Part shown: in pieces, positions 24,281 to 28,842 of the stretch
How positions within the stretch are numbered: the stretch's first letter is position 1
How the letters are laid out: each line of letters begins with the position of its first letter
From: a virus
Strand: one strand, 5' to 3'
IMG/VR virus record: IMGVR_UViG_3300027896_005002
Span: 123,488-187,487 of that record
Length of the DNA stretch: 64,000 nt
Program-made: the position numbers and the translations under genes
Notes under the pieces: generated by a model
What the model was told of the DNA's origin: nothing
The model's input: only the letters and a program-made list of their open reading frames with translations
Databases searched by the model: none

Positions 24281-24315
24281 AATCGTGAGGCTTGTGACAG
24301 TATCTATATTTTTAG
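24281..24315. repeat. 35-bp motif AATCGTGAGGCTTGTGACAGTATCTATATTTTTAG (copy 1 of 2)
   Basis: Near-identical copy at 28808..28842. Overlaps the last codons of the radical-SAM gene. Confidence 0.5.
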
Positions 24316-25224
24316 ATACTTTTCTTTACTAGACAAGACTTTACATTCACAAAGTTCTGGATAGGGACAAATTTGTGGTTGTTTTAATAAATTTCCTAAA
24401 TCAAAATCTTTTACAATGAACTTACCTGTTCTAATTTGATTCCAGCATGTTACAATTTTATGTTTGCCGAAATCTTTATTATTATCACATGAAACAATAA
24501 AAAAATTACATCCAGCATTACAATTTTCACCTTTACGAATTTTTGGAATATCTTCTTCAATGGGAAATTTAGTTTTTATAAAATCCGGGCATAAATTGAA
24601 AAGATTGTTATATTTTAATAAGTAGTCATTTTGATATGATCCGTCGGCGTTAATTACAGTCTTACACATACGTCCTTTTATACATCGTGGTATTATAAAA
24701 ATGTCATGTTTAGAAAGAATATCAAATACTTCGTGATAAACATCTAAATTTGTTCGACCTATTATTAATGTTTGGCCATTTAATAAAATGGGTGTGATAA
24801 TTTGAGTAACATTAATATTGACATTTCTAGATTTAAATTGCTTTATATTATTAATAAATTTATCTAAAAATTTTGATAATTCTTCATGAGTATTAATGTT
24901 CCGACATTCAAGATGTAATGACACATAAAGATTGCCATTTTTAATTTCATCATAATTATAACTTTGTTCACTGAGTTTAGTATTAATTATATAGTTATAA
25001 CCACATTGTTGAATATATTCAATTATTTTATAAATGTTAACGTTATCAAAGGGTTCTCCGCCTGAGATTATAATAAGACTTGATTGAGGTAAATTTTTAA
25101 AAAATTTCATATTTTTGATATCAATATCACTGTATTGAAATTGATGTACATTGTCATTTACACAGTAATAGCATCTTGGTTGACAATTATTTCCCATTAT
25201 ATTTAGTTCAACTACAATATTCAT
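24304..25224 (-). CDS. radical SAM enzyme with C-terminal SPASM/twitch-like Cys-rich domain
   Basis: CQPRCYYC (CxxxCxxC), a GGEPF SAM-binding motif, and at least 7 further Cys in the C-terminal third (CNAGCNF...CPYPELCEC). The start is set at MNIVV, which overlaps the upstream stop as TAGTATG. Confidence 0.55.
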   Translation of the reverse strand: MNIVVELNIMGNNCQPRCYYCVNDNVHQFQYSDIDIKNMKFFKNLPQSSLIIISGGEPFDNVNIYKIIEYIQQCGYNYIINTKLSEQSYNYDEIKNGNLYVSLHLECRNINTHEELSKFLDKFINNIKQFKSRNVNINVTQIITPILLNGQTLIIGRTNLDVYHEVFDILSKHDIFIIPRCIKGRMCKTVINADGSYQNDYLLKYNNLFNLCPDFIKTKFPIEEDIPKIRKGENCNAGCNFFIVSCDNNKDFGKHKIVTCWNQIRTGKFIVKDFDLGNLLKQPQICPYPELCECKVLSSKEKYLKI

Positions 25225-25225
25225 A

Positions 25226-25828: not shown

Positions 25829-28759
25829 TTATCTTCCTTGATAACTTTTACCTAGAAACCATTTATACCCACCTTTTTTCTTAAAATCTTTATATTTACC
25901 GAGTGCTCCTCTTAAATGACAGGATATTTTTCTGTTTTTGGGATTTTTCCACCATTTAATATATTCTGTATTACTTGAAAGATTTAATTTACTAATTATT
26001 CTTTGAGCCTTATCAGTTGACCATAAATCAGAAGAAATTGTTATAAATGACACTTTTGTTTTTGAAAATTGTTTGCCGAAGAACCATTTATACCCACCTT
26101 TTTTCTTAAAATCTTTATATCTCCAAACATTAAGCAATAAATGACATGTAATTTTTCTGTTTTTGGGATTTTTCCACCATTTAACATATTCAGGATTATT
26201 TTTGAATCCTAATTTGCTGACTACTTTTTGAGCTTTATCTAATAGCCACAAATCAGAAGTAAGATTTCTTAAAGTTTTTTTTGTTCGTTTTTTTAATATT
26301 CGTATATTGAATTGTTTGCCGAAGAACCATTTATAGCCGCCTTTTTTCTCAAAATCTTTATATCTGTGAACACGGGAGTATAAATGACATGTAATTTTTC
26401 TGTTCTTGGGATTTTTCCACCATTTAAGATATTCATAAGGATTAAAAAACTTAAATGGTCTAATTACTTTTTGAGCTTTATCTAAAGACCACAAATCAGT
26501 ATAACTTTTACCGAAGAACCATTTATAGCCACCTTTTTTTTCAAAATCTTTATATCTATATACATGACTATGTAAAAGTTGTGAGATATCTTTATTTTTA
26601 GGATTTTTCCACCATTTAACATATTCAGGATTATTTTTGAATCCTAATTTACTAATTACTTTTTGAGCTTTATCTAAAGACCACAAATCAGTATAACTTT
26701 TACCGAAGAACCATTTGTAGCCACCTTTTTTTTCAAAATCTTTATATCTATGAGGTCGACTATGTAAATGTGATGATATTTCTTTATTTTTAGGATGTCT
26801 CCACCATTTAGCATATTCATGATTATTTTTGAAACCCAGTTTACTGACTATTTTTTGAGCTTTATCAATTGGCCATATATCGCCATAAAGTCTTTCAACG
26901 CATTCTTTAAATTTTTGTAATGTTTCAAATGTTTCAAAAGCATTCATTGCGCTTAAGTAAATAAATGCCGGATTTTCTCTTACAATACCTCTATTTAATT
27001 TATTAATATCAAATGTTATAAAGTCTTCTTTTGCTCTTTTCCATAATTTTGTTATAATTTGTTTTGTAAATACTGTAACATCAATATTTGTAAGATGATT
27101 ATTTTCAATTTCTTCTTGAATTATTTCAGTCGTTATTTGTATTGATTGATTTTTAACTAATCGTCTATTTGTAATTAATTGTGGGTTTTCTGCAGTCCAT
27201 ATTTTCATTTCTTGAATGATATCATCATTAATATTATGAATTATATTTGCAGGCAATGTCTTATAATAATCTATATTATTAGATTCTTTATTTTTTTTTC
27301 TTTTAATTTTATCGTTTTTAACAGCTTTACACTGTGCATAAATATGTTCAAATTGCATTGAAAGTACTATAGAATTGTAATAATTTTCTTTTCGTTTTAA
27401 TGATAATTCTTTATCTAAATCTTCCATTGTATATGGTAAGATATGATATACAGTTGCATGATTTTTATTATTAGCTTTTCTTAATGCTCGACCCATTCTT
27501 TGTATGACATCTGTTATATTTTTCACTCCGGGTATTAATATTCTTGTTAAATATTTCCAATTAGCACCTTCTCTAAATGTTCTTAAAGCAACTACAAAAT
27601 CTAACATTTCATTATTATCACTATTATGAACTTTTTCAGTATAATCGTACTTTTCTTTTCTATCGGATTCAACTACTAATTCAATTCCTTTTAGCCATTT
27701 GCCATTTCTTTTAATTCTTGTTAAAATACCATCATGTTCTATTTCGGGATTATCACTATTACTTATCATTTTAAAAATCATATTTACATCATTGTATTTA
27801 CCAGTTGATTCTCTACTATTAACATCAGGTACATAAATCAATGATGGTTCCCACATTGAATCTCTATTAAGTATTACATTTGTTGCATCTTCATACGATC
27901 TTTCATATAATACAAAATTGTAATCAAAATAATCAAAATTACAATCTCTTAAATGTTCGTCGTATGGATATTTAAATGTTGTTACTTTTTCCATATTTTC
28001 TTTAGATAGCAGTGACCATTTATCGCCTCTGAATGGTGTTGCTGATACTAATCCTAATTCATTATTTCTTTCAGGAAAAGAATGTACATCATGGACAATT
28101 TTTCCCATTTTATTAAAAGTTATTAAATCTTCATTTTCATATTCTTCACATAATAAATGTTGAACTTCATCAATTGTGTAAAGTATGTATGTAAAAGCTT
28201 CAGGATTTAAATCATAAGCTAGAACTAAAGTAGCATTACAGCATACTATTATTCTATCTAAAGGATCTTTATTTCTATAAGATGTAATTGCAGTTAATAA
28301 TCTTTTAGCATTTGATAAATCTGATTTATCAATACCAATAATTTCAACATCCCAATTTATTTGAGATTTATCAGGTGCTATTATTTTCATGGGATTGAAA
28401 CTTCGTGTAATTTGTCTTTGTGGTGTTGATATGATATTGAATAATTTTGGATTTTTTTGTAATTTTTTATAATTTAGAATAGCTATTTCAACAGCTTTTC
28501 CTGCGCCAGTTGGAGCATCAATTAAATAGTATTTTTTATTAAGTAATTTGTTGTAACAGTTTAATTGCCAAGGTTTTAATATAAGTGGTTGACCGGGTAT
28601 TGATGGTTGAGGAATTGAAATTGTTTTGTCAAAATCATCAATACAAAAAGATCTTTTAATTCGAACTCGATTACCGGGTTTTCCAAAAATTTGATTTTCA
28701 TTACGCGAAATACGATTACCGTCATCATCAAATAATGAATCAATGTCAATTTTATTCAT
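25829..28759 (-). CDS. SF2 (DEAD/DEAH-like) helicase with five C-terminal ~63-aa tandem repeats
   Basis: Walker A DAPTGAGKA, DEVQH box, SAT, and motif VI QRMGRALR. The C-terminus holds 5 repeats with consensus DLWSLDKAQKVISKLGFKNNPEYVKWWKNPKN.KIS.HL....RYKDFEKKGGYKWFFGK. Confidence 0.6.
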   Translation of the reverse strand: MNKIDIDSLFDDDGNRISRNENQIFGKPGNRVRIKRSFCIDDFDKTISIPQPSIPGQPLILKPWQLNCYNKLLNKKYYLIDAPTGAGKAVEIAILNYKKLQKNPKLFNIISTPQRQITRSFNPMKIIAPDKSQINWDVEIIGIDKSDLSNAKRLLTAITSYRNKDPLDRIIVCCNATLVLAYDLNPEAFTYILYTIDEVQHLLCEEYENEDLITFNKMGKIVHDVHSFPERNNELGLVSATPFRGDKWSLLSKENMEKVTTFKYPYDEHLRDCNFDYFDYNFVLYERSYEDATNVILNRDSMWEPSLIYVPDVNSRESTGKYNDVNMIFKMISNSDNPEIEHDGILTRIKRNGKWLKGIELVVESDRKEKYDYTEKVHNSDNNEMLDFVVALRTFREGANWKYLTRILIPGVKNITDVIQRMGRALRKANNKNHATVYHILPYTMEDLDKELSLKRKENYYNSIVLSMQFEHIYAQCKAVKNDKIKRKKNKESNNIDYYKTLPANIIHNINDDIIQEMKIWTAENPQLITNRRLVKNQSIQITTEIIQEEIENNHLTNIDVTVFTKQIITKLWKRAKEDFITFDINKLNRGIVRENPAFIYLSAMNAFETFETLQKFKECVERLYGDIWPIDKAQKIVSKLGFKNNHEYAKWWRHPKNKEISSHLHSRPHRYKDFEKKGGYKWFFGKSYTDLWSLDKAQKVISKLGFKNNPEYVKWWKNPKNKDISQLLHSHVYRYKDFEKKGGYKWFFGKSYTDLWSLDKAQKVIRPFKFFNPYEYLKWWKNPKNRKITCHLYSRVHRYKDFEKKGGYKWFFGKQFNIRILKKRTKKTLRNLTSDLWLLDKAQKVVSKLGFKNNPEYVKWWKNPKNRKITCHLLLNVWRYKDFKKKGGYKWFFGKQFSKTKVSFITISSDLWSTDKAQRIISKLNLSSNTEYIKWWKNPKNRKISCHLRGALGKYKDFKKKGGYKWFLGKSYQGR
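25840..26880. repeat. tandem DNA repeats (about 190-230 bp, 5 copies) encoding the helicase C-terminal repeats
   Basis: The unit GCCGAAGAACCATTTATA(G/C)CCACCTTTTTT...AAAATCTTTATAT recurs near 25850, 26078, 26318, 26505 and 26700. Confidence 0.6.
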
Positions 28760-28807
28760 GTTATTATAATCACGTAGAAATACGTAGAATATGTGCTTGC
28801 TATGCTA

Positions 28808-28842
28808 AATCGTGAGGCTTGTGATAGTGATATATTTTTTAG
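28808..28842. repeat. 35-bp motif AATCGTGAGGCTTGTGATAGTGATATATTTTTTAG (copy 2 of 2)
   Basis: About 50 nt upstream of the helicase ATG (minus strand). Confidence 0.5.

Follow-up and report, generated by a model that had tools for sequence, protein, structure and literature searches.

A 64,000-nucleotide stretch of viral DNA (positions 123,488 to 187,487 of IMG/VR record IMGVR_UViG_3300027896_005002; hereafter the window), part of a 415,903-bp metagenomic contig (ENA ERZ27247850, k141_2484546), carries a short direct repeat at the two ends of a cassette of three minus-strand genes. These genes, which form one operon, encode a helicase, a small protein termed ORF200 and a radical SAM protein (Table 1). 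The 21-nt core of the repeat, AATCGTGAGGCTTGTGAYAGT, occurs twice in the same orientation on the plus strand, at 24281 (copy 1) and 28808 (copy 2), with 20 of 21 positions identical and a spacing of 4527 nt. The explanation that we favor, and to which we give an even chance, is that the repeat may be a piece of an intergenic regulatory module, duplicated where cassettes are exchanged, similar to the shuffling mediated by promoter-early stem-loop (PeSL) cassettes in T4-type phages. From the observations below we infer that the second copy was produced by recombination, that the pair is able to mediate excision or insertion, and that the regulatory role of the motif is accessory at most.

The first-pass annotation, made from the sequence alone, had described a 35-bp motif duplicated about 4.5 kb apart in the same orientation, and the duplication is indeed present at the places it gave. 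The two cores, AATCGTGAGGCTTGTGACAGT (24281-24301) and AATCGTGAGGCTTGTGATAGT (28808-28828), whose consensus is also written AATCGTGAGGCTTGTGA(C/T)AGT / ACTRTCACAAGCYTSACGATT, agree without mismatch at positions 1-17, and the half-sites TCGTGA and TTGTGA pointed out earlier are both found in the motif. On the minus strand, the end of copy 2 is 48 nt from the helicase ATG (28759), close to the 50 nt first estimated, and the end of copy 1 is 63 nt, rather than about 60, from the GC-richest 100 nt of the window (24117-24217). CTAAAAA(A)TATA stands ahead of the core in both copies, and in copy 1 it contains the radical SAM stop codon (TAG, 24306-24304), so that the reported overlap with this stop is real. 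In block shuffles of the window, direct pairs of at least 20/21 identity arose in 20 of 100 cases, always as AT-rich words; pairs with a GC content of at least 0.4 arose in none of the 100, and the GC content of the motif core is 0.48. The 21-nt core is a genuine repeat. The AT-rich extension to 24315 and 28842 matches at 27 of 35 positions ungapped, and better with one indel; it adds little on its own, as a shuffle yields on average 0.77 pairs that match at 27 or more of 35 positions, and the length of 35 bp is generous. Outside the repeat, the flanks have no significant likeness (p 0.38 downstream, 0.07 upstream). Further copies, for which the annotation had advised a search of the whole genome, were sought in 80.6 kb of the source contig, namely the window and two flanking loci: none was found in the window at up to 7 mismatches in 21, nor in the extra flanking loci at up to 6 mismatches.

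The evidence that carries the favored explanation comes from one relative, JGI contig Ga0209048_10002629 (L058), whose vault-like protein is 97% identical to that of the window. Positions 12478-14046 of L058 align with 30328-28757 of the window at 98.7% identity, an alignment that spans a 160-aa gene, the whole intergenic region with an ortholog of the motif (13975-13995; three core differences from copy 2), and the ATG. The homology ends exactly at the helicase ATG, after which L058 has a 13-codon open reading frame (ORF) and then an unrelated gene of a paralogous family with the N-terminus MKHLA(A/T)I..EF.K.A..W (14148-14276 in L058; 57168-57234 and 58770-58832 in the window, where the genes begin at 57225 and 58823). 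The break in homology at the ATG, with an unrelated gene behind it, shows the cassette to be a variable insert; since the ortholog precedes that unrelated gene, the motif-bearing intergenic region is not dedicated to the cassette. A comparison with a relative lacking the cassette, which the annotation had proposed, thus finds the motif region kept and a different gene behind it. More widely, the window and L058 share blocks of 69-99% identity, with insertions, losses and changes of gene order, and the region is hyperplastic and mosaic. For instance, a 116-aa gene with an upstream GC hairpin is found in the window and not in L058, its insertion point lying right after the stop of the vault-like gene with no flanking direct repeat.

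Signs of recombination are concentrated next to the cassette. The 1574-nt L058 alignment has 20 differences, 14 of them within 28763-28858, and the 750 nt after this interval have none; over the final 100 nt ahead of the cassette, the divergence rises from ~0.4% to ~10%. At two core substitutions, copy 2 agrees with copy 1 (CCTCAC), and the L058 ortholog reads CTTGAC. This locally raised divergence points to recombination, and would fit either the arrival of a diverged homologous segment of the intergenic module together with the cassette or a homogenization of the two copies. In addition, no genes between 14 and 38 kb of the window have a lower GC content at third codon positions (GC3) than those of the cassette, at 0.14-0.17. 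The gene-free kilobase downstream of copy 1 holds members of three of the ~11 dispersed exact repeat pairs of at least 17 nt in the window: the motif, a 17-mer promoter-upstream element that also occurs at 5765, and a 37-nt inverted copy of part of the gene 3004-3414. By this post hoc count, the kilobase appears to be a patchwork of fragments, as the repeats suggest. Both the low GC3 and the fragment-rich kilobase fit recombination.

Copy 2 would then be the upstream part of an intergenic control module of ~150 nt, with the order AT-rich stretch, core, two TTCTACGT elements, GATTATAAT and ATG. Such a module would belong to the phage backbone and could drive different downstream genes in different strains, and copy 1 would be a partial copy of it that recombination left at, or brought to, the other end of the cassette. 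The repeat would thus be mainly a scar or a substrate of recombination, as in PeSL-type modular shuffling. Exchange between copy 1 and copy 2 would delete the cassette and release a circle of 4527 bp with one motif, the GATTATAAT promoter segment and three genes, a self-contained expression unit. The deletion allele would consist of the left flank of copy 2, the core and the right flank of copy 1 (...ATATATCACTATCACAAGCCTCACGATTCTCTTAGTGACATACC...), and the circle junction of the left flank of copy 1, the core and the right flank of copy 2 (...TATAGATACTGTCACAAGCCTCACGATTTAGCATAGCAAGC...).

Several points weigh against this explanation. On the left, the homology with L058 breaks off at the ATG, which lies 48 nt inward of the repeat; the observed crossover point is thus not the repeat, and the right-hand junction lies beyond the end of the L058 contig. 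An empty site with a single motif copy was not found among the sequences searched. As L058 is the one informative relative, it is not possible to say whether copy 2 was converted or L058 mutated. Moreover, the gene-free kilobase was seen to be enriched in short repeats by a post hoc count, and two copies compare with tens for PeSLs, a number that covers 80.6 kb of the ~416-kb genome.

PeSL cassettes of T4-type phages are known for modular shuffling and the formation of mini-circles (Arbiol et al. 2010, PMC2839356; Comeau et al. 2014, PMC4122927). They are present in ~50 copies concentrated in hyperplastic regions, have a length of ~100 nt, and contain sigma-70-like -35/-10 boxes and a stem-loop terminator (PMC2839356, PMC4122927). 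Like them, the motif is a repeated intergenic regulatory sequence whose AT-rich part is able to hold the stop of the upstream gene, it stands in a hyperplastic region and flanks genes that differ between near-identical phages, and recombination between the flanking copies would release a circle with genes, one chimeric motif and its own promoter. Unlike them, it is found in two copies in 80.6 kb, its repeated part is ~35 nt long, its copies have neither a sigma-70 consensus nor a shared stem-loop terminator, and the likely promoter (GATTATAAT) lies outside the repeat and is not duplicated; the host genome is that of an unrelated probable huge phage, in which the motif is known from sequence alone. 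Because there are two copies, no sigma-70 boxes and no shared stem-loop, the motif is not a PeSL by definition. The feature is of an ordinary kind in phage genomes, here in an unusual genome. If the explanation is true, it would provide a worked example of accessory operons swapped at shared intergenic control modules in an uncultivated probable huge phage, such swapping having so far been documented by experiment mainly in T4-like phages.

A better candidate for the promoter of the operon lies between copy 2 and the ATG. A recurrent element, (T)GATTATA(T/A)AA(A)TAGGAG, occurs in the 60 nt upstream of ORFs of the window; GATTATAWWAA has 10 sites against 1.15 expected, a number reached in no shuffle, and eight of the 10 are directly upstream of a gene start on the correct strand. 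Many members of this family have GCCACATTTTGRACGCG ~23 nt upstream together with a TCTACG element, and the family contains the T4-late-like TATAAATA. The T4 late promoter is a phage promoter type without a -35 element. The likeness consists in GATTATA(T/A)AA(A)TAGGAG, with its TATAAATA-like sequence, standing directly upstream of many genes including the helicase gene; it concerns this neighboring element, whereas the motif itself does not contain GATTATAWWAA and is outside the family. The member ahead of the helicase gene, GATTATAATAA, is located 37 nt downstream of copy 2 and conserved in L058, and the arrangement TCTACG ... GATTATA-N5-ATG is found ahead of two other genes as well. It is likely the real promoter of the operon, with a leader that would be very short or absent. 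Downstream of copy 1, no GATTATA element, sigma-70 match or terminator was found. The L058 ortholog does read TTGACG-17-CATATT, which matches sigma-70 at 9 of 12 positions, but such matches are no more numerous in this stretch than expected by chance. The proposal of a dedicated promoter or operator for the module is therefore not supported: the L058 ortholog precedes an unrelated gene, GATTATAATAA lies between the motif and the ATG, and copy 1 has nothing promoter-like behind it. The label of module promoter should not be applied to the motif.

Other roles for the motif itself were considered and rejected. As an RNA-level element it is poorly suited: the copies and the L058 ortholog share no fold, and the weak hairpin, an 8-bp AT-only palindrome in the AT-rich part of copy 1, is missing from copy 2. 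A small ORF has no conserved start on direct reading of the sequence, no terminator-like site was found at the copies, and neither window copy has a sigma-70 match on the gene strand.

It could be argued that the core is an operator or upstream activating site, bound by a sequence-specific protein encoded by the phage or even the cassette and co-regulating the helicase operon and a transcript downstream of copy 1, in the GC-rich island. This is an unlikely alternative, if the one that best withstands the evidence. Both copies point the same way and have a feature at a similar distance downstream (48 and 63 nt), and TCAC tetramers recur, on direct reading, at roughly helical spacing. What keeps the alternative in play is the agreement of the two copies at core positions that differ in a near-identical relative, which could reflect co-evolution with a binding protein. 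However, neither type of promoter-like element follows copy 1, and the ortholog of copy 2 precedes an unrelated gene. No recognizable DNA-binding regulator was detected in or beside the cassette by scans of the cassette and neighboring proteins against Pfam, PHROGs, PADLOC and NCBIfam, and the repeats of the helicase match no known DNA-binding fold. The island at 24117-24217, for which a non-coding RNA had been proposed, gives no match in Rfam at gathering or relaxed thresholds, is not a tRNA, and folds no better than its shuffles (z between +1.0 and +1.4 for the minus strand, and -0.5 for the plus strand). It has no homolog either, the sole other contig carrying the stretch being 100% identical to the window. 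The putative RNA thus finds no support.

An attachment-site or target-site duplication, in which a recombinase or transposase would have put a discrete mobile element into a target of 17-21 bp, is improbable. The direct repeats do bracket exactly three genes of a composition unlike that of their neighbors, and their perfect 17-nt core has the size typical of attachment-site cores, in which they resemble an attL/attR pair. Unlike such a pair, they have no recombinase, are diverged outside the core, and do not mark the junction in the relative. The same scans found no integrase, transposase or homing endonuclease in or beside the cassette, the sole transposase-like gene, TnpB, being 30 kb away, and no other cassette or copy of the site turned up in any collection searched. 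In addition, in L058, where the cassette is absent, the 48 nt between the repeat and the ATG, which count as 'inside', are still present. The annotation had offered the repeats as boundaries of an inserted cassette, which stands in that they enclose three genes with the lowest GC3 and that the cassette is absent at this site in L058; since the homology runs 48 nt beyond the repeat, they are not its exact junction.

Chance likeness of two unrelated sequences has very little in its favor, for although exact 16-17-mers recur a few times per 64 kb and 27/35 pairs appear at the rate given above, no shuffle produced a comparable pair with GC of at least 0.4, a single variable cassette has a copy at either end, and the core is conserved in the L058 ortholog. 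Similarly far-fetched is a new self-contained mobile or self-regulating module of helicase, ORF200 and radical SAM protein, in which a product of its own, such as the five-repeat array of the helicase, would recognize the 21-nt core at both ends to drive excision and insertion of the 4.5-kb unit, or to loop the sites together for its control.

Table 1. Features at and around the repeat (window coordinates unless a contig is named)
Feature	Position	Strand	Remarks
Motif copy 1 (W1)	24281..24315	-	minus-strand reading CTAAAAATATAGATACTGTCACAAGCCTCACGATT
Motif copy 2 (W2)	28808..28842	-	minus-strand reading CTAAAAAATATATCACTATCACAAGCCTCACGATT
Intergenic module, 160-aa gene to helicase ATG	28757..28905	-	kept in L058 through ATG
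Two TTCTACGT copies	28772..28789	-	10 nt spacing; directly upstream of GATTATA
GATTATAATAA, GATTATA family member	28761..28771	-	1 nt before helicase ATG; no Shine-Dalgarno
GATTATA family sites, examples	6942, 7192, 13237, 14391, 19617, 20463, 28761, 33754		
SF2 (DEAD/ResIII-like) helicase	25829..28759	-	976 aa; first cassette gene
ORF200	25226..25828	-	200 aa; conserved partner of helicase family
Radical SAM protein	24304..25224	-	306 aa from M43; CxxxCxxC motif
Helicase + ORF200 pair	25226-28759; L056 645-3988; L057 80-3534		
Stretch of ~1 kb without genes	23286..24303		between convergent units, downstream of copy 1; includes GC-rich island 24117-24217
116-aa gene + upstream GC hairpin	30341-30746		hairpin AAGGCCTCTCTAATAAAGAGGCCTT; present in window, not in L058

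The cassette may be of more interest than the repeat, as its helicase is rare, ORF200 is a conserved partner of that helicase, and the radical SAM enzyme is an orphan. The C-terminal part of the helicase (residues ~625-976) consists of five tandem 64-aa repeats (window 25847-26883) with the consensus LWSLDKAQKVISKLGFKNN.EY.KWWKNPKNRKI...RYKDFEKKGGYKWFFGK. No match to these repeats was found in Pfam, PDB sequences or Foldseek; in an AlphaFold model, the repeat is predicted as a five-helix unit (pLDDT 75) that has no fold match in PDB. ORF200 likewise has no match in Pfam, PHROG, PADLOC, NCBIfam or PDB, and its single-sequence AlphaFold model (pLDDT 41) is too poor for use. ORF200 is a real gene: two other metagenomic contigs (L056 and L057) carry a homolog of it, with 27-33% identity, behind their homolog of the helicase, and the pair is conserved, though known from no more than a handful of contigs, all metagenomic. 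For the radical SAM protein, the similarity to radical SAM and SPASM proteins is weak and generic, and in L057 it is not the third gene after the pair. A longer ORF for it overlaps ORF200, but the gene most likely starts at M43 (25224), right behind the ORF200 stop, which corrects the gene model; the protein library entry is the 306-aa form. The possibility that the repeat truncates this gene was rejected, as its alignments with two weak homologs, both full-length, reach to about the last 10 residues.

Searches of sequence collections added little. A 15-mer scan of IMG/VR gave 51 matches, all with unrelated flanks, which are chance occurrences within genes, and a 25-mer from the promoter segment had no match there. 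The 21-mer, exact or degenerate, retrieved only the ortholog's own contig from the JGI metagenomes, and in its degenerate form gave no match in GTDB genomes. Neither Megablast nor blastn gave a match among GenBank phages; IMG/VR loci sought through the helicase, radical SAM and vault-like proteins, and GTDB genomes searched with the ORF200 profile, gave none either, and no relatives of the cassette were found in GTDB genomes or IMG/VR. Exact-protein look-ups of the flanking genes returned the source contig, identical fragments and L058, and nothing more. Homologs of the L058 gene standing in the place of the cassette led to an unrelated locus.

The gene-free kilobase, beyond which lies a convergent block of plus-strand genes, takes part in a second long-range repeat. 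A perfect 37-nt inverted repeat (3358-3394 and 23558-23594) has its arms 20 kb apart: the left arm corresponds to codons 7-19 of a small membrane-protein-like gene on the minus strand (3004-3414), and the right arm lies in the kilobase, 2 nt from a promoter-upstream element. A minus-strand transcript across the right arm would be perfectly antisense to the 5' coding region of that gene. One Logan contig has a break at window position 3387, which falls within the left arm. Another contig, Ga0031655_10000534 of JGI (L063, L068), is 100% identical to window 80-24256 and ends 25 nt short of copy 1, an end that does not fit a simple repeat-induced assembly break.

As to the source genome, the window encodes RNA ligase, DNA-ligase-like proteins, an RlaP nucleotidyltransferase, a phiEco32-type COOH-NH2 ligase and TnpB. 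This gene content and the vault-like gene described next make a huge phage of ~416 kb the probable source; because no capsid or terminase gene is found in the window, the term 'probable huge phage' is drawn from the remaining genes. The major-vault-protein-like gene at 30747-33212 (821 aa) has MVP shoulder and Vault_3 domains, and thousands of homologs at ~45% identity, many of them on contigs of 250-640 kb; its product looks like a widespread protein of huge phages (or bacteria).

Further duplications are present in the window. Two segments of 300 nt (5333-5632 and 38087-38386), 32.7 kb apart, form a direct duplication with 80% identity, and a tandem 46-nt duplication at 51897-51988 has a GATTATATATATAGG promoter-like element in each unit. 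The ORFs 7232-7819 and 8410-9549 each match parts of an ATP-dependent DNA ligase, the second being fused to a DnaJ domain. Finally, the accessory region also holds the TnpB/OrfB_IS605 gene (59074-60312) and a GmrSD_N-like (NsnA-like) gene (21371-21904).

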